A stretch of DNA of 64,000 nt from a virus. Taxonomy: Duplodnaviria > Heunggongvirae > Uroviricota > Caudoviricetes. The notes under the pieces were generated by a model. It did no database searches. It was not told the DNA's origin and saw nothing but the letters and a program-made list of their open reading frames with translations. Location: the IMG/VR virus record IMGVR_UViG_3300050026_000241; one strand, 5' to 3'. How positions within the stretch are numbered: position 1 is the first letter of the stretch; the number at the start of each line of letters is the position of its first letter. A program made the translations under genes and the position numbers. Positions 23,063 to 64,000 of this stretch are shown piece by piece.

Positions 23063-23329
23063 ATGAGAGAGACCGAACTACTGAATGCCCTGGCACTTAG
23101 CAAGCCCGGCATCGAGATTCGCATGTGCAAAGGGCACAAAGTCTCGGTGCGGATGCGCGGCGAGCCCTTAGTGTGCGGCATCGGCACGACGCTTATGGAA
23201 GCCGCCATTGACTGTGCCCACTGGGTTTTCGACGTGTGTGCTGACCGCCCCGAGTTGGAAGAAAAGATTCCCGAAGTCCTGGCCGCTTTGTGTGCCTATG
23301 ACGAACATTCACAGGGTTTACAACTATGA
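23063..23329 (+). CDS. hypothetical protein
   Basis: ATG 16 nt after T7-like promoter motif ending ~23047. Confidence 0.45.
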   Translation: MRETELLNALALSKPGIEIRMCKGHKVSVRMRGEPLVCGIGTTLMEAAIDCAHWVFDVCADRPELEEKIPEVLAALCAYDEHSQGLQL

Positions 23330-23430
23330 ACGCCACCGACCGGTTGTTGGCACTTTTGGCTTTTGGCGTGCTGATGGGCTTTGCGCTTTGCACGGCCACC
23401 GCCATGCTCATTGCACTGTTCACCCGATAA
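23326..23430 (+). CDS. very small TM protein
   Basis: 34 aa; approximate. Confidence 0.25.
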   Translation: MNATDRLLALLAFGVLMGFALCTATAMLIALFTR

Positions 23431-23447
23431 CCCATACGACACGAACT

Positions 23448-24194
23448 ATGAATGACAGCATTGGCGACCGATTCAAGAACAATTATGAGGCCCCCGCGCG
23501 TCACCTACTGACCCGCAGGACGCCCGTAATCGTGCGCATTGACGGTCGTGCCTTCCACACCTTCACCCGCGACTTCCTCAAGCCGTTCGACCGTGAGTTA
23601 ATCAACATGATGGTGTTGTCGGCCATGCACGTCTTTGGCGAAATGCAGGGCTGCAAGATAGCTTACGTCCAGTCGGACGAGGCCAGCTTCGTGTTGACCG
23701 ACTACGACACTTTCGACACGCAGCCTTGGTTCGGCTACGTCAAAAGCAAGGTGGAAAGTGTCGCGGCGTCCTGCATGACGGCTGCGTTCGCACGTTGCCA
23801 GCATCTTGCGGGTGGGCGGTACGCCGACTCACTGGCGACATTTGACGCCCGTGCCTTCAACATCCCCAGGAATGAGGTAGTAAACTACTTCGTGTGGCGG
23901 GCGAAGGACTGGGCGCGCAACAGCTTGTCGATGTACTGCCAGTCGATCTTCTCTCACCGCGAGTTGCAGGGCAGGAACTCCAAGGCCATGCACGAAATGC
24001 TGTTTGCGAAAGGCCGTAACTGGACACGCGACCTTTGCAACGCCGAGAAGAATGGGACGTTCTTGATTGCCCCGAAAGAGGCCGTGGCCGCGAATTCCGA
24101 CATCGAACCAAGATACGGCGACATTGATGCCGTATGGGAAGCCGTTCGACCAAAAGAGGCCGTCACTACCGCAATCGAAATCGTAAGCGAATAA
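23448..24194 (+). CDS. Thg1-like protein (tRNA-His guanylyltransferase family, 3'-5' nucleotidyltransferase)
   Basis: N-terminal VIVRIDGRAFHTFT matches Thg1/TLP signature. Confidence 0.65.
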   Translation: MNDSIGDRFKNNYEAPARHLLTRRTPVIVRIDGRAFHTFTRDFLKPFDRELINMMVLSAMHVFGEMQGCKIAYVQSDEASFVLTDYDTFDTQPWFGYVKSKVESVAASCMTAAFARCQHLAGGRYADSLATFDARAFNIPRNEVVNYFVWRAKDWARNSLSMYCQSIFSHRELQGRNSKAMHEMLFAKGRNWTRDLCNAEKNGTFLIAPKEAVAANSDIEPRYGDIDAVWEAVRPKEAVTTAIEIVSE

Positions 24195-26387: not shown

Positions 26388-27779
26388 TCAAATGACCAAG
26401 CCAATACCTAGAACAACCCCGCAATCGGCTTTTGCCACTATCCAGGGCGACTTGTCGCCATATTGGAATGACAAGTGCCGCGCGTTGCAATCGCGCCTCT
26501 GGTGCCCAACCGAGAATGATTGCAAAGTGTTGTTCGATTCTTCGGAGTTCATTGAGCGTGTTGCCTCACCGTCTGCCGGAGATTTGTGCCCGTCGTTTGT
26601 ACTTCCCGCTCTATCTGGCGAGCGACCCAAGGAAAAGGAAGTTAGCCGTAAGATAAGGCTCTATCCGAAGAACTTGGAGAAGTGGGAGGAATGTTTGTGG
26701 GCGGCTCGTCGGGCCTACAACCTCGCTATTGAGGCTTTCAAGGAATGGAAGAAGGATGTGCCGAGCGAGGCAGATAACCAATCCGCCTTTCGCCGCTCAA
26801 TCCGTGAAAAGGTAGCGGCTGAATTTCCCGGTGTGCCGCGCGTAATGCTTGACGAAGCGGTCAACAGCGCTTACCTCACACGGCAAGCCATCATTAAGAA
26901 AAGATCGCAAGGTGAGCAATGCGACTTTTCCTTCCGTTGCCGGAAGGACACGAAGCAATCGTTTGTAGTTGAGAGGCTTGCGAACGGTGGGCCGTTTCCA
27001 ACCTTTCTGAAATGCCATCTTACCGAGGCGATTCCGAGCGAATCTGCCGGGAAAATGGCGGTTGTTGTGCGAGAGCATGGTAGATGGTTTCTGACGTGTA
27101 AGGTCAAGGTGCCGGTTGCTGCCGAGAGCCAAGGTAGGAAAACCGTCGCTTGCGACCCCGGCGTAAGAACTTTTCTCGCTACCTACTCTCTTAGTGATTG
27201 TGCGTTTATCGGCCACGGCTTTGCCGCCAAGATACGACCAATGCTCTTGCAGCTTGATAAGTTGCTTGGGCGGCGGAAGTGCTTGAGCAACATCAAGGAA
27301 TGGAAGCAATGTCACCGGGATAGGAACCGTAACTTGCAAAAGCGAATCGACTCGATCTTTTGCAAGGTGCAAGACTTGATGGACGATCTGCACCGGCGTG
27401 CGGCCGATTTTCTCACAAAGAACTTCGACGTGATTTTGCTTCCGACATTTGAGACTTCCGAAATGGTTTCCAAGAGCGCACGCAAAATTGGTAGCCGCTC
27501 CGTCCGGTCGATGCTATCCCTTGGTCACTATCGCTTCAAGCAATTCCTGATTTGGTCGGCCTACAAGCGTGGCAAGATCATAGTGGATTGCAGCGAAGCG
27601 TGGACCACATGCACCGACTCCCGAAGCGGTGTGATTATTGATGTTGGTTCAAGGGAATGGATCAACGGACTTCACAGGGATGTAAACGGCTCGCGGGGTA
27701 TTTTCCTCCGAGCGATGGCGGCTTGAGCCCGAAACATCCCCAGCAAACGCTACAAAATGTTGCGTTTGTTGCGTTTCAA
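26364..27779 (+). mobile_element. TnpB-only transposon-like unit bounded by inverted repeats
   Basis: left TTGAACGCAACAAACGCAACAT (~26364-26385) vs right ATGTTGCGTTTGTTGCGTTTCAA (~27757-27779), 22/23 match; tnpB fills the interval. Confidence 0.5.
26392..27726 (+). CDS. tnpB: TnpB-like RuvC-fold nuclease (IS200/IS605 OrfB family)
   Basis: RKIRLYPKNLEKWEECLWAARRAYN; RuvC-I KTVACDPGVRTF; RuvC-II LLPTFETSEM; RuvC-III HRDVNGSRGI; zinc finger degenerate. Confidence 0.75.
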   Translation: MTKPIPRTTPQSAFATIQGDLSPYWNDKCRALQSRLWCPTENDCKVLFDSSEFIERVASPSAGDLCPSFVLPALSGERPKEKEVSRKIRLYPKNLEKWEECLWAARRAYNLAIEAFKEWKKDVPSEADNQSAFRRSIREKVAAEFPGVPRVMLDEAVNSAYLTRQAIIKKRSQGEQCDFSFRCRKDTKQSFVVERLANGGPFPTFLKCHLTEAIPSESAGKMAVVVREHGRWFLTCKVKVPVAAESQGRKTVACDPGVRTFLATYSLSDCAFIGHGFAAKIRPMLLQLDKLLGRRKCLSNIKEWKQCHRDRNRNLQKRIDSIFCKVQDLMDDLHRRAADFLTKNFDVILLPTFETSEMVSKSARKIGSRSVRSMLSLGHYRFKQFLIWSAYKRGKIIVDCSEAWTTCTDSRSGVIIDVGSREWINGLHRDVNGSRGIFLRAMAA

Positions 27780-29185: not shown

Positions 29186-29481
29186 AGTTCTTCGGCTGGA
29201 ATCCCGAATGGCTTGAAGGTCGAATTGTCAACCGCCGACTGACGGATGCCTATGACATTTCGATCTGCCGACCCTCAAAATGGGGTAATCCATTCGAGGT
29301 TGAAGTATACGGCCGAGAGCGGGCTATCGCCCTTTTTGCGATACATCTACGACGCCGCCCCGATCTTATCGCATCTTTGCCCGAGCTATCGGGCAAAATT
29401 CTAGGCTGCTGTTGTTATCCGCTACACTGCCACGGTGCTATTTTGCTCCAATTTCTATGGGAATACCACGGCTTGCTATGA
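29182..29481 (+). CDS. DUF4326-family protein
   Basis: RPSKWGNPF and GKILGCCCYPLHCHGAIL. Confidence 0.5.
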   Translation: MKFFGWNPEWLEGRIVNRRLTDAYDISICRPSKWGNPFEVEVYGRERAIALFAIHLRRRPDLIASLPELSGKILGCCCYPLHCHGAILLQFLWEYHGLL

Positions 29482-30515
29482 ATCTTAAATCAATCGGCTT
29501 CTACACGCTCAGCGACGAGCGCTGTCTTAACGTCAGTGCGTTGTCGCCTATGCAGCGGTGCGAAATGATCCTGACGGACAAATGCAACTTCAAGTGTCCG
29601 TACTGCCGGGGCCTGCGCAACGATTGCAAGGGCGACTTGCCGATTGAAGACGCGATGGCGACCCTCAAGCTGTGGTGCGACGACGGCTTGAAGAACGTGC
29701 GGTTCTCTGGCGGCGAACCCCTCACATACCCGCATCTGGACGCCTTGGTGAAGTACGCCAAGTTCCGTGGTGTCGAACACATAGCGATCTCTTCCAACGG
29801 CTCGTTCCCGTTCGGCCGCTACTACGAATTGATTACCGAGGGCGTCAACGACTTCTCAATCAGCCTGGACGCTTGCTGTAGTTCATACGGCGACAAGATG
29901 GCGGGCGTCAGCGGGCAGTTTGAACGGGTGACGTACAACATCGTCGAGTTGTCAAAGCTAGTTTACACGACGGTCGGCGTGGTACTCACAGCCGAGACCG
30001 TTTCCACGACTCGCAGAGTCGTGGAGTTTGCACACGGCCTGGGCGTGACCGACATACGAATCATCCCGTGCGCCCAAGAGGGGAACGGCAACGCTGAACT
30101 TGTTCGACAGGTTGGACTAATTTCGCAAAAAATCTTGGACGCCCACCCTATATTAAAATATCGGGTACAGAACATCCTTAATGGTGTGCTAATTCGCGGC
30201 TTACAAGCGTCCGATACGCACACCTGTTACCTGGCCCTGGACGACAGCGTAGTCAGCGGCGGGTATCACTATCCCTGTGTTATTTACCTGCGTGAGAAGG
30301 GCGAGCCAATCGGCAAAGTCGGCCCGAACATGAGAGGCCAGCGAGTAGCGTGGATGGCCCAGCACGACACCCACAAAGACCCGATCTGCTCTAAGCAATG
30401 TCTCGATGTCTGCTGCGCGCATAATAATCGTTGCGCCTTTTATCAAGAGAGGAAGCACTGGTTTGTCACGCAGACTGCATCTACCGATGCCGAAAATGTC
30501 AGCACGCGACATTGA
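29478..30515 (+). CDS. radical SAM protein with C-terminal Cys-rich region
   Basis: CNFKCPYC (CxxxCxxC); RFSGGEPL; C-terminal CSKQCLDVCCAHNNRC. Confidence 0.7.
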   Translation: MNLKSIGFYTLSDERCLNVSALSPMQRCEMILTDKCNFKCPYCRGLRNDCKGDLPIEDAMATLKLWCDDGLKNVRFSGGEPLTYPHLDALVKYAKFRGVEHIAISSNGSFPFGRYYELITEGVNDFSISLDACCSSYGDKMAGVSGQFERVTYNIVELSKLVYTTVGVVLTAETVSTTRRVVEFAHGLGVTDIRIIPCAQEGNGNAELVRQVGLISQKILDAHPILKYRVQNILNGVLIRGLQASDTHTCYLALDDSVVSGGYHYPCVIYLREKGEPIGKVGPNMRGQRVAWMAQHDTHKDPICSKQCLDVCCAHNNRCAFYQERKHWFVTQTASTDAENVSTRH

Positions 30516-31897: not shown

Positions 31898-32101
31898 GTG
31901 ACTGAACAGTCCGGTAAACCGGACTACGACAGAGATATGGCCCGCTTGGAGAACTTCATCGCTCTGGTGCGGCTGGTCCCTGTCCTGCATATCCCCACAC
32001 CGGGCAGGGTCGAAGAGCACGAAGTCAGAATGGCCGGCGTAAACATCGGCACGATCGGCGTCAAGTCGCTGGCGTGCTGGGATATTCCCGAGGGGCCATG
32101 A
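31898..32101 (+). CDS. hypothetical protein, paralog pair member 1
   Basis: LENFIALVRLVPVLHIPTPGRVEEHEVRMAGVNIGTIGVKSLACW; GTG start. Confidence 0.4.
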   Translation: MTEQSGKPDYDRDMARLENFIALVRLVPVLHIPTPGRVEEHEVRMAGVNIGTIGVKSLACWDIPEGP

Positions 32102-32409
32102 CGCTCACAACAACCTTCAATTACCGGGTCTACATCGAAGTCACCCGCAAGACGCCGGAGACTATTAACTTCAACATCGTGCCCACGGTCGAAGTAATAG
32201 GCGAGGCCCTACGCCGGCTGAAGGAAGATGTCTGCAAGCAAGAGATCGAGCGGCTGGACAACCTTGTCTCGCTCGTCAGGTTGGCCGGCACGCTCCGCAT
32301 TCCGACTGCCGGACAGAAAGAGATTCACGATGTAAAAGTGTCCGGCATCTACATCGGGAAGGTCGTTATCAAATCCATAATTGCCTGGACCACAGTAGGG
32401 ACACCATGA
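32098..32409 (+). CDS. hypothetical protein, paralog pair member 2
   Basis: LDNLVSLVRLAGTLRIPTAGQKEIHDVKVSGIYIGKVVIKSIIAW. Confidence 0.45.
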   Translation: MTLTTTFNYRVYIEVTRKTPETINFNIVPTVEVIGEALRRLKEDVCKQEIERLDNLVSLVRLAGTLRIPTAGQKEIHDVKVSGIYIGKVVIKSIIAWTTVGTP

Positions 32410-32969
32410 ATTTTTTATCGAGCATCTTTGGATTTTTCAAGTCCTTCCAGTTTTGGGTGGTTGTGGCTCCGTGGGAGTTGGGACTTCGGATACGTCTTGG
32501 CAAGACGGCTGTTGTCCTGCGTCCGGGTCCGCACATACGCATTCCGTTTCTCGACCGTATGTACGTTCAGCCCACCAGACTGCGTACAATCAGTGGCATC
32601 GCCCAAACAGTGACCACCAAAGATGTCAAGGCATTTACGGTCGGGACTGCCGTTATGTATCAGATCGCAGACATCCTAAAGCTGCACATGGCCGTGGCGA
32701 ACCCGGAAAGTTCGCTTCTCAATCTGATATACGGAGTAATCTCGAAAATCGTCACCGATCGTTTGTCTACTGAGCTAACCCTTGAAACATTGGAAACGCA
32801 AGTAATCAAGGAATTGCCCACGGCAGATTGGGGACTGTCAGATGTCAAGTTGATCGTGACGACATTCGCTTTTACGAGAGTGCTTCGACTTCTGAATACG
32901 GCCTCGTATGAGTACCAAAACACGAGTCAAACGAATAACCTTTCGGCCACCACTGATGTCCAAGGATAG
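32406..32969 (+). CDS. SPFH/band-7 domain protein, copy 1
   Basis: FQFWVVVAPWELGLRIRLGK...PGPHIRIPFLDRMYVQPTRLRT. Confidence 0.55.
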   Translation: MNFLSSIFGFFKSFQFWVVVAPWELGLRIRLGKTAVVLRPGPHIRIPFLDRMYVQPTRLRTISGIAQTVTTKDVKAFTVGTAVMYQIADILKLHMAVANPESSLLNLIYGVISKIVTDRLSTELTLETLETQVIKELPTADWGLSDVKLIVTTFAFTRVLRLLNTASYEYQNTSQTNNLSATTDVQG

Positions 32970-33900: not shown

Positions 33901-34401
33901 ATGACCGACCAAGACGTTATCCTGTTGGTAATCAACGCCATTCCTGGCAGCAAGACCGTGACTGTTGGCGGTAGAAAATTCGAGTTTGCTACCATCGCAA
34001 ACGGTGCTGTCGAAAAACGGTTCGCCAGATTCATCAAGAAGCTCCCGCACCCCATCGACTTCACCGTCCGCCGCTACCTGGACGATACCTACCTGGACGA
34101 AGCCGGCAAGATCAAGCAGTGGTCCGTTATCTACGGGTTGCAACTGGACGGCGAGAAGATTTTCCCGGTCTCCGGCGAGACCATGAAGCGCAGCCGCAAG
34201 AAGATGGAGGGTGTCGTATTCGAGACCCCGGACCTTCACGCCCTGCTGGCCCGGCTCATGGCAAACGCTGCTGGCGAGATCGGTGAGGCCGGGTCCGACG
34301 CCTACAAGGCCGCCATCAAGGCCGGTGGCGAGTGTGAGGATGCCTGTGAAGCCGCCATCAACGCCGCCGCCGAGGCCGCGATAAGGAAGATCAAACAATG
34401 A
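33901..34401 (+). CDS. hypothetical protein
   Basis: ATG 33901 (or GTG 33892) in track ORF. Confidence 0.5.
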   Translation: MTDQDVILLVINAIPGSKTVTVGGRKFEFATIANGAVEKRFARFIKKLPHPIDFTVRRYLDDTYLDEAGKIKQWSVIYGLQLDGEKIFPVSGETMKRSRKKMEGVVFETPDLHALLARLMANAAGEIGEAGSDAYKAAIKAGGECEDACEAAINAAAEAAIRKIKQ

Positions 34402-34841
34402 AGAAAATTCTCCCCTGGCTCCCCGTCACCCTAGCCCTGTTGTTCCTGGTATTCATGTTCGGCTTGGACGCCACCATCAAGCACACTCCCGAGGCCACTT
34501 GCCTTTTCCTGGTGGCCTGCGTAATGGCGGCGGCCGTCCTATTCAGCTTGATTATGGCGAATGTCACAGTGTCGGCGGCCGGCGAAATCATCCAAGAGGC
34601 CGAAGCTGTGGTACAAGCAGTGCCCGAGCGACCGAGAGAAGACCTTTCCGACGCCGAGGCCCTGGCCATCCTTGGCGATTATTTACTAGGCAAGAACGGC
34701 GAGATTCCAGACACGATCACCTTTGAGCGTGAAGCCATCGGATGGGCCTACGGCCGAATGCAGTACCGACACACCTGGGTCGTCTGCGGCCCGTGCGAGG
34801 ATTCAATGGAACGGCTGATGAAGAAGAGGGAGCAAGCATGA
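34398..34841 (+). CDS. membrane protein
   Basis: two N-terminal TM helices. Confidence 0.5.
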   Translation: MKKILPWLPVTLALLFLVFMFGLDATIKHTPEATCLFLVACVMAAAVLFSLIMANVTVSAAGEIIQEAEAVVQAVPERPREDLSDAEALAILGDYLLGKNGEIPDTITFEREAIGWAYGRMQYRHTWVVCGPCEDSMERLMKKREQA

Positions 34842-35044
34842 GAGGCTTTGGAACAGACGGTCTTGGCAGCGTCCAAGCCGACGTGTGGAAGTCACTTCAA
34901 GAACACGGCTATTGGTCCCGTGTCGGCTGCGGCTGGCTCTGGGACACGCCATCCAACACGGCCCGCATCATGGAGTCACTCGTCCGTCGTGGGCTGGCGA
35001 CAAAGACCGTTGACGGCCACCGAATCATCTACAAACCAACATAA
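34838..35044 (+). CDS. hypothetical protein
   Basis: ATG inside track ORF 34742..35044. Confidence 0.4.
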   Translation: MRGFGTDGLGSVQADVWKSLQEHGYWSRVGCGWLWDTPSNTARIMESLVRRGLATKTVDGHRIIYKPT

Positions 35045-35079
35045 GGTGGACTCGTGGCGTGGAACCCGCGAGTTGCAAT

Positions 35080-35328
35080 ATGAAGCGGCGACCCTACGGC
35101 GACCCTACGGGGAGGCTGGCGTATACCGCCGTCGCGCGATGTGCCGTATGGCGACGTTCGTTCGGTCCAATTCCGACCTTCACCACCTTTGAAACTATGA
35201 ACATCGCCATCAAGTACAATAGAAAAGGCCGTCCGATCTTCGGCACCCTTTGGCAGCGGCTCTGGTGGGGCCTTGGCTGCTGGTCCCACGAAGACACTAT
35301 CGTGTCTGTGTTTACTGGCGGATTGTGA
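35080..35328 (+). CDS. hypothetical protein
   Basis: weak; Trp-rich. Confidence 0.3.
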   Translation: MKRRPYGDPTGRLAYTAVARCAVWRRSFGPIPTFTTFETMNIAIKYNRKGRPIFGTLWQRLWWGLGCWSHEDTIVSVFTGGL

Positions 35329-35383
35329 ACGGCAACCTGGAATCGTTCAGCACGGCATACAATAAAGGCAACGGACAACTCGT

Positions 35384-35590
35384 ATGATTTTCAAAGCAAC
35401 CCATATCGGACAGCTTACCGGCGATGCCCGCACAGGCGGCCAAAAGCCGACCGTGCGACTGCGTGAGACCAAGACGTGCTGGATAGACAAGCACGGCATC
35501 AAGTATCGAAAGGCAACCGGCTGGCCCACGGGCGGCGATAGCTGGCCTCTCTGGACATTGGCCGTAGAGACAGTGAGGCCAATAGTATGA
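35384..35590 (+). CDS. hypothetical protein
   Basis: 68-aa ORF. Confidence 0.4.
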   Translation: MIFKATHIGQLTGDARTGGQKPTVRLRETKTCWIDKHGIKYRKATGWPTGGDSWPLWTLAVETVRPIV

Positions 35591-36138
35591 GTTGGCTTAC
35601 GAGTGTGTTTGGGTTCTTTCGTTCCTTCCAATTTTGGGTCACGGTAGCCCCGTGGGAATCTGGCCTGCGTGTTCGTTACGGTACAACGGCCACACTACTT
35701 AACCCAGGTCTACACTGGCGGGTTCCGTTTCTGGATCGTATCTTCATCCAGCCTGTCCGTCTTAGAACCATTGAGACGCCGACCATCACGTTCACCACGA
35801 AGGACGGCAAGACGCTTTCCGTGCGACTGGCAGTAATGTACCGGGTGGCCGATGTTAAGGCACTCCACATGACCGTGGCGAATCCCGAAAGCACGCTTCT
35901 GGCAACCGTACAAGGATTGATTGCGACATACGTTAGCGCTACGGCGGCTGACGATATTACTACGGAGGGTTTGACCGCGATCATTAAGCAAAACAAAGTC
36001 GGCATTGATTGGGGTTTGTGCGACGTGGACGTACTGGTTATGACCTTTGCGTTCTGCCGGACGCTTCGGCTTCTTATGCAAGACTGGCAGAATACCAGCA
36101 TGACCAACATGCTGCCATCGACAACCGATCCTCTGTAG
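35587..36138 (+). CDS. SPFH/band-7 domain protein, copy 2
   Basis: FQFWVTVAPWESGLRVRYGT...PGLHWRVPFLDRIFIQPVRLRT; paralog of 32406. Confidence 0.55.
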   Translation: MSWLTSVFGFFRSFQFWVTVAPWESGLRVRYGTTATLLNPGLHWRVPFLDRIFIQPVRLRTIETPTITFTTKDGKTLSVRLAVMYRVADVKALHMTVANPESTLLATVQGLIATYVSATAADDITTEGLTAIIKQNKVGIDWGLCDVDVLVMTFAFCRTLRLLMQDWQNTSMTNMLPSTTDPL

Positions 36139-36143
36139 TTGAC

Positions 36144-36171
36144 TTGACTTCTCTGAAAAGGATGCTATGAT
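36144..36171 (+). promoter_or_regulatory. sigma70-like promoter cassette (duplicate copy with doubled -35)
   Basis: GTTGACTTGACT...TGcTATGAT; followed by truncated copy of 36523 gene start. Confidence 0.45.
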
Positions 36172-36295
36172 TGAGTATGGACACAACCAAGAACCGACAG
36201 CGTGACGCCTACACCTTCGCCTACACCTTCGCCAACACCAACCTGTTGGGTCGGTCCACTTTTCCAAATGGCTCAACTAGACCTGGGAGATTGAT

Positions 36296-36493
36296 ATGCA
36301 CGAAGTTGAATTTGTAAGCGCCCGATACCTGGAAATGGCCGCCGCGCATCCGGGCCTGATTACCAGAAGCCGCCCGGTAATGATCGAACGGCGGATACTC
36401 GACAGGCGAACGACCGACCGGCGCGAAGTTGACCGCTGCGATTCAGTAGCACAACTGCTACGGGCCGCCTTTCCCGAATTCGGCCGCGCTTGA
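36296..36493 (+). CDS. hypothetical protein
   Basis: 65 aa; lies between the duplicated promoter/5'-end copies. Confidence 0.4.
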   Translation: MHEVEFVSARYLEMAAAHPGLITRSRPVMIERRILDRRTTDRREVDRCDSVAQLLRAAFPEFGRA

Positions 36494-36517
36494 CTTCTCC
36501 GAAAAGGATGCTATGAT
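36490..36517 (+). promoter_or_regulatory. sigma70-like promoter cassette
   Basis: leaderless ATG 36523. Confidence 0.6.
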
Positions 36518-36522
36518 TGAGT

Positions 36523-37368
36523 ATGGACACAACCAAGAACCGACAGCGTGACGCCTACACCTTCGCCAACATCAACCTGTTGGGCCGGTGCAACTGTGAT
36601 TGTTTCTTCTGCTTGGGTAAGGATATTCCCGAGCTATTACAGCAACATGACCAGCGGGCCGTCCACTTTTCCAAGTGGCTCAACTGGTGGGCCTTCCTTC
36701 GTCGCTGCTGTGACGAGGGTGTGTCCAAGCTGTACGTCACCGGGCAGAACACCGATTCATTACAGTACGTCCACTTGCAGGAATTGATCGACTTCCTGCA
36801 TCGCCAACGCTTCCAAGTCGGGCTGCGGACCAACGGCTATCTCGCATCAAAGCGGCTGGCCGTAATCAACAGCACTGACCTGAGCGTGGGCTACAGCATC
36901 CATTCGATCATCCCGGCCACGACCAGGGCCATTCTCGGTCGAAGCGACATTCCCGATTGGGACATGCTTCTCACCGAGACCGAACGGCCGCGCGTGCAGA
37001 TCGTCGTCAATCGCTACAACAAGACCGAATTCTGGCCGCTGCTTGAGCACATCGCCAGCTTCCCAAAGGTCCGCTACGTTCAGGTGCGGCGGGTTTGCTC
37101 CGACACGCGAGAGCCCGAGTTGACGCCGGACATTGAGGCACACGACCGGCTGCATGACGAAGTTCGGCAACTCTACCCGCTCAAGAAGATCATCTACGGA
37201 AGCGCGGAAGTCTACAACATTTACGGCAAGGAAGTAGTCTTCTGGCGCACGGTCAAGACAACGGCCAACTCGCTCAACTACTTCACGGACGGCACCGTGA
37301 GCGACCAGTATTTCATTGTGGAGGGCTACCAGAAATACTGCGGCCGGGAGTGCGCCAATGCCAACTGA
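36523..37368 (+). CDS. radical SAM protein
   Basis: cassette promoter, leaderless; CNCDCFFC (CxxxCxxC). Confidence 0.7.
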   Translation: MDTTKNRQRDAYTFANINLLGRCNCDCFFCLGKDIPELLQQHDQRAVHFSKWLNWWAFLRRCCDEGVSKLYVTGQNTDSLQYVHLQELIDFLHRQRFQVGLRTNGYLASKRLAVINSTDLSVGYSIHSIIPATTRAILGRSDIPDWDMLLTETERPRVQIVVNRYNKTEFWPLLEHIASFPKVRYVQVRRVCSDTREPELTPDIEAHDRLHDEVRQLYPLKKIIYGSAEVYNIYGKEVVFWRTVKTTANSLNYFTDGTVSDQYFIVEGYQKYCGRECANAN

Positions 37369-41733: not shown

Positions 41734-41764
<31 letters not shown>

Positions 41765-43538: not shown

Positions 43539-43724
43539 ATGAGTACAATTCAAGCAAAGGATTTAGTCGAGGGTCAAACGGTCGAAACTCGCAAGGGTGT
43601 CAAGACAGTAAAGACCAGCGGCTACCTTAACGAGAAACTTTGGCGGCTGGAATTCACCGACTGGGAAATCTGCCTTTGCCGGCATGACCACCCATTTCCC
43701 ACTACATCGGAGCGACCAGCATGA
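43539..43724 (+). CDS. hypothetical protein
   Basis: cassette promoter, leaderless. Confidence 0.5.
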   Translation: MSTIQAKDLVEGQTVETRKGVKTVKTSGYLNEKLWRLEFTDWEICLCRHDHPFPTTSERPA

Positions 43725-43945
43725 GAGCAAGGTTCTACGGAATCAAAGGGCGATGCGGCTTCGTTCACGCCTGTTGTTTTGACGCCTTTGTAGAGGCCAA
43801 TGCCGTAAGGGATGTGCAAGGCCGCATTGTTCGCCGGCCGCTTGCCGACGCCATTGTCTACACGCTAGGACACGCCGGCAACGGCCCTTGCCTGCATTGC
43901 AAGGAAGTGCTATCGGCCGCCCCAAACACGGCCCGGAGAAATTGA
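43721..43945 (+). CDS. Cys-rich hypothetical protein
   Basis: CGFVHACCF...CLHC. Confidence 0.45.
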   Translation: MRARFYGIKGRCGFVHACCFDAFVEANAVRDVQGRIVRRPLADAIVYTLGHAGNGPCLHCKEVLSAAPNTARRN

Positions 43946-43949
43946 TTCC

Positions 43950-43995
43950 CGATTGAGTAAATTTGGGGAAAATTTTCACACGGTTGCGCGCACCC
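43950..43995 (+). repeat. dispersed noncoding element (copy 2)
   Basis: GTAAATTTGGGGAAAATTTTCACACGGTTGCGCGCACCC. Confidence 0.5.
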
Positions 43996-44083
43996 GCCCC
44001 CGCCTACCCGCCCGCACCCAGGTAATCCGATCAACCCTTAACCTTAGAAAGCCCGCTATGACCCCGAAACCGCAAAATCCGGC

Positions 44084-50750: not shown

Positions 50751-50969
50751 ATGAGCGACGAACTTGCTATCCTTGACGCCCTGTGGACAACGCTCCGTAT
50801 CCGGTTGCACGGTCCTTTCATCGGCGTAGGATATTTCATTGTGAAAGACCTGGGGGCCTGTGCCGAGAGGATTTGGACCGGGGAAGATTGGGGCCGTGCC
50901 CCGAAATACTACCCCACCTTGCAAGCCGCCTTTGACGACTTGCCTAACATCTGCCGGTTTCTGACTTGA
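50751..50969 (+). CDS. hypothetical protein
   Basis: cassette promoter, leaderless. Confidence 0.5.
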   Translation: MSDELAILDALWTTLRIRLHGPFIGVGYFIVKDLGACAERIWTGEDWGRAPKYYPTLQAAFDDLPNICRFLT

Positions 50970-51001
50970 CTTTCGACTTGACTTTCGACTTGACTTTCGA
51001 C
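50962..51001 (+). repeat. 12-nt tandem iterons TTGACTTTCGAC x3 merging into true -35
   Basis: seen directly. Confidence 0.8.
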
Positions 51002-51029
51002 TTGACTTCTCTCCGGCACATGCTATGAT
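51002..51029 (+). promoter_or_regulatory. sigma70-like promoter cassette preceded by three extra -35 iterons
   Basis: leader to 51065. Confidence 0.6.
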
Positions 51030-60852: not shown

Positions 60853-61044
60853 ATGCACAACATTCGCCTATCATTGACGCCGGCCGGCTGGGTTGCCCGG
60901 TACACTGACCCGGAGATTTACCGGCTATTCAAGACCGTCACCTTATTGACCACTTTCACGGCCAACGCCGCGCCTATGGCCGTTCTAGCGGAAATTAGAC
61001 GACTTAACCCGGCCGCCGATGTTCAACTAGACCTGGGAGATTGA
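60853..61044 (+). CDS. hypothetical protein
   Basis: 3' end shares CAACTAGACCTGGGAGATTGA with ~36268. Confidence 0.45.
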   Translation: MHNIRLSLTPAGWVARYTDPEIYRLFKTVTLLTTFTANAAPMAVLAEIRRLNPAADVQLDLGD

Positions 61045-61062
61045 CTTGACTTCGCCCCGGCG
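61035..61062 (+). promoter_or_regulatory. sigma70-like promoter cassette (doubled -35)
   Basis: TGgTAGTAT; leader with (CAACG)n to 61128. Confidence 0.55.
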
Positions 61063-61069
61063 CATGGTA

Positions 61070-61105
61070 GTATTAAGTAACAACGCAACGCAACGCAACG
61101 CAACG
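61070..61105 (+). repeat. (CAACG)n pentanucleotide repeat in 5' leader
   Basis: 5-6 units; exact count uncertain. Confidence 0.7.
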
Positions 61106-61127
61106 CAACGCAACAGAAAGTAGAACA

Positions 61128-61388
61128 ATGAGCAACACAACCGCGACCGCAACCGAAATCTATCCGAAAGAACTTTTCGACCTTGCCGACGCAATCAAAC
61201 GGCAGCCGCCCGACATTCGGGCCGCCCTTGCCGCCCCGTTGAAAACGGCCCTTGACGCCGCCGCCCGCCTCCGGCTCGTCCTGACGCTAGTACAGGACAC
61301 CTTGCAACAGATACGGCTTGACATCAAGTTTCTGACCTTCGACCTTGAGGCAACGCGCCGCGAGCGCGATGCCGCGAAAGGATTGTAA
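61128..61388 (+). CDS. hypothetical protein
   Basis: leader has (CAACG)n. Confidence 0.5.
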   Translation: MSNTTATATEIYPKELFDLADAIKRQPPDIRAALAAPLKTALDAAARLRLVLTLVQDTLQQIRLDIKFLTFDLEATRRERDAAKGL

Positions 61389-61612: not shown

Positions 61613-61767
61613 AACCCATGCGAACGTACAAGGACAAAAATAACCTGACCGGCACGGCCGCCGAACTCGCTACAATCGAAAAGGTCCGCACGGAGTTTCA
61701 AGCGGAATGGCTTTTGCAGAAGGCCCGCCTGACGCGCAAGACGGCCGCCGCCAAGAAGCGGGCTTAA
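61609..61767 (+). CDS. small basic protein
   Basis: 52 aa; ATGA overlap; approximate. Confidence 0.35.
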   Translation: MKPMRTYKDKNNLTGTAAELATIEKVRTEFQAEWLLQKARLTRKTAAAKKRA

Positions 61768-61799
61768 CTTTCAACTTAACTTTCGACTTAACTTTCGAC
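61768..61799 (+). repeat. 12-nt tandem iterons CTTAACTTTCGA(~x3) upstream of -35
   Basis: seen directly. Confidence 0.75.
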
Positions 61800-61827
61800 T
61801 TGACTTCGCCCCGGCACATGGTATTAT
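61800..61827 (+). promoter_or_regulatory. sigma70-like promoter cassette preceded by 12-nt iterons
   Basis: TGgTATTAT; leader to 61852. Confidence 0.55.
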
Positions 61828-61851: not shown

Positions 61852-62124
61852 ATGGCAAAAAACAACGGCAAATGCAGCGAGTGTAACAAGAGCCTGCGCA
61901 TCAGCGTAGAGCAGTTTATCGGCCCCGCCAAGAGTAAGCCGATTGCCCCCGGCACTACAATGCCGGGTGGCACTACAACCTGCATAAAGCAACTAAGCGG
62001 AACAAGCTGGTGCGCGGATTTTCGCGTAGGAAACTGGGCAATCATCGACGGCCGCAAAATCTGCACGACCTGCGCAGAAGCTAAACTCGACCCGAACAAT
62101 CACCCGGCACTTGAGCCGACTTGA
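61852..62124 (+). CDS. Cys-rich hypothetical protein
   Basis: CSECN...CTTC. Confidence 0.5.
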   Translation: MAKNNGKCSECNKSLRISVEQFIGPAKSKPIAPGTTMPGGTTTCIKQLSGTSWCADFRVGNWAIIDGRKICTTCAEAKLDPNNHPALEPT

Positions 62125-62168
62125 GAATCGACTTGAGAATCGACTTGAGAATCGACTTGAGAATCGAC
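62117..62168 (+). repeat. 12-nt tandem iterons CGACTTGAGAAT x4 upstream of -35
   Basis: seen directly. Confidence 0.8.
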
Positions 62169-62196
62169 TTGACTTCTCCCCGGCACATGGTAAGAT
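62169..62196 (+). promoter_or_regulatory. sigma70-like promoter cassette preceded by 12-nt iterons
   Basis: TGgTAAGAT; leader to 62258. Confidence 0.55.

Positions 62197-63825: not shown

Positions 63826-64000
<175 letters not shown>

Follow-up and report, generated by a model that had tools for sequence, protein, structure and literature searches.

A small phage gene between two copies of a radical SAM promoter: probable relocation by short-homology recombination

In the stretch of the Caudoviricetes record IMGVR_UViG_3300050026_000241 (IMG/VR) analysed here, 64,000 nucleotides (nt) long and called the window below, a gene of 65 amino acids (aa), gene S, lies between two copies of the promoter of a radical SAM (rSAM) gene. 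The locus raises the question of where S came from and how its neighbour's promoter came to be present twice. The window is part of the genome of an uncultivated large phage, and its region from 31 to 63 kb looks like a hyperplastic early region. The answer that we consider likely is that S, together with the 3' tail of a gene called X, moved from about position 61044 to 36279-36488 by illegitimate recombination at short homologies, which duplicated the promoter and the 5' end of the rSAM gene. Read in this way, the event is a well-resolved instance of known processes and involves no new mechanism or kind of element. The coordinates of the features are collected in Table 1; related contigs are referred to by their L numbers.

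The duplicated promoter and 5' end of the rSAM gene

The initial annotation had reported a decayed upstream copy of the promoter and gene start, and this copy is present: according to the repeat finder, copy A (36143-36225) and copy B (36489-36571) are 98% identical over 83 nt, with one base different. In a self-BLAST of the window the pair is the longest repeat (E = 5e-36), and a 33-nt promoter string is found at these two sites alone, against 0 expected. The single base which separates the copies is identical between them in the near-identical contig L001. Each copy contains a TTGACT -35 box, a 16-nt spacer, a TG-extended TATGAT -10 box and an ATG located 5 nt past the -10 hexamer.

Two more collinear matches follow the first: 36218-36258 with 36552-36592 (93%) and 36249-36278 with 36656-36685 (90%), the latter being the piece near 36660 that had been recognised earlier. 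The start-to-start offsets of the three matches go from 346 to 334 to 407, and therefore copy A has undergone two changes, a 12-nt duplication and a 73-nt deletion. The extra unit previously noticed in the upstream copy is the duplicated one: TACACCTTCGCC at 36210-36221 is repeated at 36222-36233 (Tandem Repeats Finder, TRF, row 36206-36239). Concerning the deletion, 73 nt of the rSAM gene (36590-36662) are missing from copy A, the CxxxCxxC codons are gone and the frame is shifted; the endpoints are the imperfect repeats GGGCCGGT (36582-36589) and GGGCCGT (36656-36662), i.e. GGGCCG(G)T repeats. Short repeats flank the deletion as well as the duplication. About 60 nt of the gene had been thought to be part of the repeat; the copying itself stands, but the similarity extends ~163 nt into the rSAM gene, whose coding sequence makes up ~60% of copy A. 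The repeat is thus not confined to the promoter, which had been named as the finding that would undo the interpretation.

Copy A is best read as a dead 5' fragment, originally the promoter and first 163 nt of the rSAM gene, because, with the deletion, the Fe-S cluster motif is lost and the frame altered. Three substitutions separate copies A and B; compared with L009, L010 and L007, two of the three are derived in A, as expected for a decaying, non-functional fragment. The 46-codon open reading frame (ORF) left in the fragment is probably a by-product. The substitutions are unevenly placed, with 0-1 mismatches in the promoter and first 49 coding nt and all three substitutions plus the indels in the remaining ~62 nt, and the remnant ORF overlaps the start codon of S; both features would fit a copy A kept as a functional element, either a 46-aa leaderless peptide or a regulatory leader of S. 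The difference in substitution density is, however, not significant (about p = 0.08, simple partition), the fragment is frameshifted and without the catalytic motif, and all carriers are >99.8% identical, so that conservation cannot be judged. The fold of the leader RNA is not unusual either (z = +0.6 against shuffled sequences), and a structured regulatory leader was dropped for this reason. We regard a functional copy A as distinctly improbable.

Four contigs, each assembled independently from a different sample, carry the whole structure (copy A, S, copy B), in two upstream contexts; it is therefore no assembly artefact. The promoter is repeated about 40 times in the region, and one short contig (L006) ends in copy-A-like sequence after promoter B, a pattern commonly left by assembly at an 83-nt repeat; on these grounds the similarity could be ascribed merely to two members of a promoter family, or to a chimera. 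Such an explanation is extremely improbable, given that three collinear segments of coding sequence match, that the pair is the sole repeat in the window which enters a coding sequence, and that two of the four contigs span both copies. The end of L006 (L006:876-911, contig Ga0495410_166115), where copy-A-type sequence and not the intact rSAM gene follows promoter B, includes both the deletion junction and the duplicated 12-nt unit; the 83-nt repeat may have confused the assembly at this point, or else the contig represents a genuine variant with a tandem promoter-fragment-S array.

Concerning the two upstream contexts, L006 resembles the window (Band_7), and in L001 and L005 an unrelated segment of ~600 nt (120-aa gene) replaces window 34395-36142. 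The first base of promoter A (36143) is exactly where homology between the window and L001 (99.9% identical) sets in again. The replaced part of the window is a 1.75-kb module reaching from a 147-aa gene through Band_7, and its counterpart is L001:4925-5525 (600 nt); to judge from L009, the window version of the module is the older one. A further difference is a 361-nt segment with a 74-aa gene (window 43690-44050) which is missing from L001 and whose ends share the microhomology ATGACC.

The recipient gene encodes a protein with a weak match to PF04055 (Radical_SAM; score 15.8, cut-off 29.5), and hundreds of its homologues are found at 55-63% identity, many of them with a precomputed PF04055 match. 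Its best NCBIfam match is viperin-like (23.9 bits, cut-off 180), and no equivalog was reached in the NCBIfam search. A comparison with relatives that lack the small gene, suggested in the initial annotation, gave a clear result: L010 (79% nt identity), L007 and L008 (80%) have one copy of the promoter fused to the predicted leaderless rSAM start, and no S. L009 (84%) shares the upstream module of the window as far as the Band_7 stop codon at 36139 and continues with a 91-aa gene, tRNA-Pro, a promoter, a nucleotidyltransferase gene and rSAM, also without S; its rSAM gene has no promoter directly ahead, the nucleotidyltransferase stop overlapping the rSAM start (ATGA). Since relatives carry a single promoter-rSAM unit without S, this unit is older than the duplication and the insertion of S is specific to the lineage of the window. 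The tRNA of L009 (L009:2479-2553, tRNA-Pro(TGG)) lies between the 91-aa gene and the nucleotidyltransferase promoter; the window has no tRNA. In L007 (L007:9940-10001) the codon corresponding to the leaderless rSAM ATG reads ATC, and the start called for the gene is a TTG 60 nt further downstream; this relative may no longer have the leaderless start.

The origin of gene S

The ORF of S (36296-36493), which the initial annotation had placed between the copies, is confirmed. Upstream of it, the 21-mer CAACTAGACCTGGGAGATTGA is found at 36274 and 61024 and nowhere else in the window (0.01 occurrences expected), and direct reading extends the identity to 22 nt (36273-36294 and 61023-61044). The identity previously noticed with the 3' end of a gene at ~61024 is therefore exact; at 61 kb the 22-mer is the end of the 63-aa gene X (...DVQLDLGD*). 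Its first 6 nt, TCAACT, are also found at rSAM 36680-36685, precisely where the match between copy A and rSAM ends, and the left junction has the form of a classical microhomology junction (TCAACT, 6 nt) inside the rSAM coding sequence. The GGGAG of the X tail is located six bases ahead of the S ATG (36296).

Gene X had been taken as an unrelated gene; the relatives of S show it to be the ancestral upstream neighbour. Homologues of S are few (69-83% amino-acid identity) and are found in eight related contigs representing seven distinct loci, inside a block which matches window 59-63 kb; in all eight, S directly follows X or Y, the upstream neighbour of X. Y, X and S are contiguous in L017, with an X homologue 80% identical and the S ATG 3 nt past the X stop, and Y is followed by S in L011, L012, L013, L015, L016 and L018. 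For L011, L013, L017 and L018, alignment to the window places S at 36296-36524, the sequence on its left at 60.3-61.03 kb and the sequence on its right at 61097+, 61263+ or 61796+. The S stop lies inside a CTTGACTTCGCCCCGGCACATGG promoter in L011, L012 and L018, of the same subtype as the promoter at window 61045. L021 has S with its own promoter and an AAGGAG leader.

These gene orders (Y-X-S or Y-S) and flank matches indicate that the ancestral order was probably Y-X-S-promoter; S and the last 16-22 nt of X are now 24.7 kb from this ancestral site. It is functionally plausible that the X tail was retained, since it contains the predicted ribosome-binding site of S both in L017 and in the window. 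S is single-copy within the window (tblastn). In the four places shown (out of six contigs carrying X), contigs encoding exactly X have X directly followed by the promoter and the 86-aa gene; a near-identical haplotype retaining X-S was sought among the contigs encoding exactly X and none was found, all four places shown having an empty donor site.

The ratio of nonsynonymous to synonymous substitution rates (dN/dS) of S is 0.14-0.42 against five homologues, which points to a real, conserved coding gene under purifying selection. No match to S was found in Pfam, NCBIfam or PHROG, and its AlphaFold2 model is poor, with two short helices and a predicted local distance difference test (pLDDT) score of 57.

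A proposed course of the relocation

Based on these junctions and gene orders, the event can be reconstructed as follows. S would originally have been the last gene of a Y-X-S operon at ~61 kb, with its Shine-Dalgarno sequence provided by the final codons of X, and would have been followed by a promoter whose -35 box overlaps the S stop. The segment comprising the X tail and S would then have been copied into the rSAM locus by recombination with two short-homology junctions: one from coding nt 163 of rSAM (TGGCTCAACT/GG, the slash marking the breakpoint) to the X tail (GTTCAACT/AGACC) via 6 nt of microhomology, the other between two -35 boxes, that following S and that of the rSAM promoter, which share at least 9 nt (CTTGACTTC). 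Since the point of re-entry lies 197 nt upstream of the point of exit, both the rSAM promoter and coding nt 1-163 would have been duplicated. The product would consist, in order, of promoter A, the dead rSAM fragment as a 119-nt leader, the X-tail Shine-Dalgarno sequence, S, promoter B and the intact rSAM gene.

The fragment would have decayed afterwards, or would already have been scrambled in the same event, by the 73-nt deletion, the 12-nt duplication and three substitutions; period-12 tandem duplications are common in this genome (11 TRF rows), which favours independent slippage. S would also have been lost from its old site, the net result being a 24.7-kb translocation in which S, once operon-terminal, gains a private and predictedly strong promoter and rSAM keeps its own. 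The sequence fits three routes equally: a replicative template switch, break-and-join with one short homologous anchor, or Campbell-type integration of a small circle bearing both junctions. The earlier proposal that illegitimate or homology-facilitated recombination inserted a small gene and duplicated the promoter is thus supported by the junctions and the relatives. Its extension, that the locus reveals how the cassette spreads, can be retained only insofar as a promoterless gene gained a copy of its neighbour's promoter.

Several observations weigh against this course of events. No near-identical genome with X-S intact was found, and the closest Y-X-S relative, L017, has just 72-81% DNA identity and a different X tail; X-S being intact only in this distant contig, the donor arrangement in the direct ancestor is placed there by parsimony. 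The right junction assumes a promoter overlapping the stop of the donor S, which is present in L011, L012 and L018 and absent in L013 and L017, where another small gene follows S. A second event is required for the loss of S at the donor site, where microhomology is not seen. Only one of the four breakpoints between the window and L001 is at a promoter edge (36143), the others being at 31906, 34394 and 43689/44051, and promoters are therefore not the sole recombination sites. Finally, the activity of promoter A and the leaderless initiation are predicted properties.

The separate loss at the donor site bears on the source of S as well. The same structure could have arisen with a co-infecting close relative as the donor, the absence of S at 61044 being then an independent and possibly older difference; the loss needs an event of its own in either case. 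S is found in at least four contexts in the family (Y-S, Y-X-S, own promoter and S in L021, rSAM fragment and S), and the copy A variant CCAAATGG is common to L009 and not to copy B, as a donor from outside would allow. The X tail on S is, however, identical to the resident X at 22 of 22 positions and the other known X tail (L017) differs at many positions, so that any donor must have been essentially of the same lineage. We consider a donor of this kind unlikely.

The right junction also invites comparison with the promoter-early stem-loop (PeSL) cassettes, whose shuffling is documented in T4-type phages (PMC2839356, PMC4122927). Homologous recombination between promoters, with excision of a mini-circle and its reintegration, would need no illegitimate junction. 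The many near-identical promoters of the window are suited to it, the break between the window and L001 lies exactly at the promoter edge 36143, and the homology of L011 and L018 resumes at the promoter at 61796-61799. Exchange of this type would nevertheless move whole cassettes without gene fragments, whereas the left junction lies 163 nt inside rSAM and 22 nt before the end of X, with TCAACT alone shared; it is applicable to the right junction at most, and as an account of the locus it is very improbable. For the left junction, which is inside two coding sequences, a pure promoter-to-promoter exchange was rejected. A further idea, that S already had a promoter which was then converted to the sequence of the rSAM promoter, was also discarded: the 163 nt of rSAM coding sequence are non-homologous and could not be added by gene conversion, and the X tail places the previous position of S inside an operon.

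Table 1. Features of the rSAM-S locus, the putative donor site and the predicted leaderless-type starts (window coordinates)
Feature	Position	Strand	Remarks
Promoter copy A	36143..36176	+	-35 TTGACT 36144-36149, -10 TATGAT 36166-36171; now precedes gene S
rSAM 5' fragment, piece 1	36177..36255	+	Equals gene 36523-36589 plus the 12-nt duplication; starts with the putative leaderless ATG; tblastn: rSAM residues 1-23
rSAM 5' fragment, piece 2	36255..36278	+	Equals 36662-36685; joined to piece 1 by the 73-nt frameshifting deletion
Remnant ORF, 46 codons, putatively leaderless	36177..36317	+	rSAM N-terminus, then out of frame; ends 20 nt past the S start codon
X tail	36273..36294	+	GGGAG Shine-Dalgarno 36287-36291; X stop TGA 36292-36294
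Gene S, 65 aa	36296..36493	+	Stop TGA 36491-36493 inside the -35 box of promoter B
Promoter copy B	36489..36522	+	-35 36490-36495, -10 36512-36517; ahead of the intact rSAM gene
Intact rSAM gene, 281 aa	36523..37368	+	C23-x3-C27-x2-C30; putatively leaderless, ATG 5 nt after the -10 hexamer
Gene Y, 60 aa	60654..60836	+	First gene of the presumed ancestral Y-X-S operon
Gene X, 63 aa	60853..61044	+	Last 22 nt are the source of the junction; donor site after its stop, now empty
Promoter (CTTGACTTCGCCCCGGCGCATGG...) and (CAACG)n leader of the 86-aa gene at 61128	61045..61127	+	Abuts X where relatives carry S
Leaderless-type starts (predicted)	10728, 18466, 31648, 33546, 36523, 38729, 46551, 48741, 49358, 50417, 50751, 52537, 54161		ATG near -10

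The promoter family and comparison with known systems

The promoters at the locus are members of a large family. On the + strand between 31600 and 62600, about 40 near-invariant sigma70-type promoters are found, one before almost every small gene, with the consensus CTTGACTT[CT], a 16-nt spacer and a TG-extended TATGAT; the -35 string shared by the right junction has 38 occurrences against 0.5 expected, and in 44-63.8 kb there are 46 promoter-like sites where 10.5 are expected. Terminator-like sites are not enriched across the region (30 against 29.5 expected) in a simple scan, in which weak or unusual hairpins could be missed, and the scan of this locus gave no terminator-like hairpin beside promoter A or B. 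In 13-15 promoter-gene pairs, including both rSAM copies, the ATG is located 5-6 nt past the -10 hexamer without a Shine-Dalgarno sequence, which would imply leaderless mRNAs at such pairs; the remaining promoters have A/C-rich leaders ending in CAGGGAG. A DNA search of INPHARED phages with window 34-40 kb gave no match, as did IMG/VR searches with S, the X-tail/S junction and the promoter consensus, and the consensus was not found in GTDB genomes.

Immediately upstream of three promoters (50958-51008, 61763-61806 and 62117-62172) there are 3.7-4.7 copies of a 12-nt -35-like unit (e.g. CGACTTGACTTT), which could be operator or UP-like arrays, or slippage products. Period-12 tandem duplications account for 11 of the 31 TRF rows (among them 36206, 38314, 46565, 49724, 50323, 51059, 55116 and 61566), and another is found at L007:10015-10040, inside the CxxxCxxC region of the rSAM homologue; their frequency suggests a characteristic slippage signature. 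Two 5' leaders contain microsatellites, (CA)14.5 at 41734-41762 and (CAACG)6.8 at 61081-61114, potentially making their length variable. Elsewhere in the window, 32406-32969 and 35587-36138 are two SPFH/Band_7 paralogues, 53% identical and 2.6 kb apart. Among the genes at 23208-24194, 26392-27726 and 29412-30515 are a Thg1-like tRNA-His guanylyltransferase gene (PHROG E = 2.5e-75), a match to the PHROG transposase family phrog_506 and a second, unrelated radical SAM gene; the gene downstream of these three is aligned with a TnpB-like (Cas12f1-like_TNB) gene in L001. The window ends in a 114-nt C run (63887-64000) after CCGCCCCGCC-like repeats, which may be a contig-end or sequencing artefact.

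The locus offers an unusually complete record of one gene-shuffling event in a phage, in which donor, recipient, both junctions, the carried-over ribosome-binding site and the promoter duplication are readable. It illustrates how an operon-internal gene may become an independently transcribed cassette, as predicted from its promoter, and how repeated promoters may increase in number within a hyperplastic region of a phage not belonging to the T4 group. It is an ordinary but clear example of gene shuffling in a phage genome, and draws attention to the unusual way in which promoters are arranged in this phage. A bolder reading would treat the promoter as a self-propagating regulatory cassette, a terminator-less and partly leaderless counterpart of PeSL, in which template switching at -35 boxes routinely relocates genes and gives operon-internal ones private promoters, the rSAM fragment and its mini-ORF tuning the translation of S; this we offer as a speculation that is rather unlikely to hold as a whole.

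Among known systems, the PeSL mobile regulatory cassettes of T4-type phages (Arbiol et al. 2010, PMC2839356; Comeau et al. 2014, PMC4122927) are similar in several respects: dozens of near-identical, predictedly strong sigma70-like promoters bound small, mostly ORFan genes in a plastic region, some of the breakpoints between relatives, though not the other three against L001, are located at promoters (36143 against L001; 61796 against L011 and L018), and genes relocate within the genome. The differences are that no stem-loop terminator stands beside the window promoters, the S stop lying inside a -35 box; that many of the promoters are fused to putative leaderless starts; and that the phage is not recognisably T4-like. 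The event in the window would also have used a promoter at one end only, the other end being an illegitimate junction in coding sequence.

In lambdoid phages, a moron is an extra gene between two genes that comes with its own promoter and terminator and with a deviating base composition. S is similarly a small accessory gene with a promoter, inserted upstream of a resident gene that relatives have without it. It differs in that promoter A is a duplicate of the recipient's promoter, there is no terminator, the gene comes from the same genome lineage, and S is an internal operon gene in relatives.

Homology-facilitated illegitimate recombination, as defined in PMC3240628, describes the proposed event well, with one end in the shared -35 box/promoter and the other at the TCAACT microhomology. 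The anchor in the window is, however, 9-13 nt long, against hundreds of bp in transformation and conjugation experiments, and the setting would be phage replication or recombination and not uptake of linear DNA. Replicative template switching (fork stalling and template switching/microhomology-mediated break-induced replication, FoSTeS/MMBIR; Hastings et al. 2009, PMC2621351) is a model developed for cellular genomes. The window shares with it a complex rearrangement, with what would be a templated insertion flanked by a duplication and accompanied by a small deletion and a small tandem duplication, and with 3-9 nt of microhomology at each junction; the origin of the four junctions of the window in a single event would be an assumption of that comparison.

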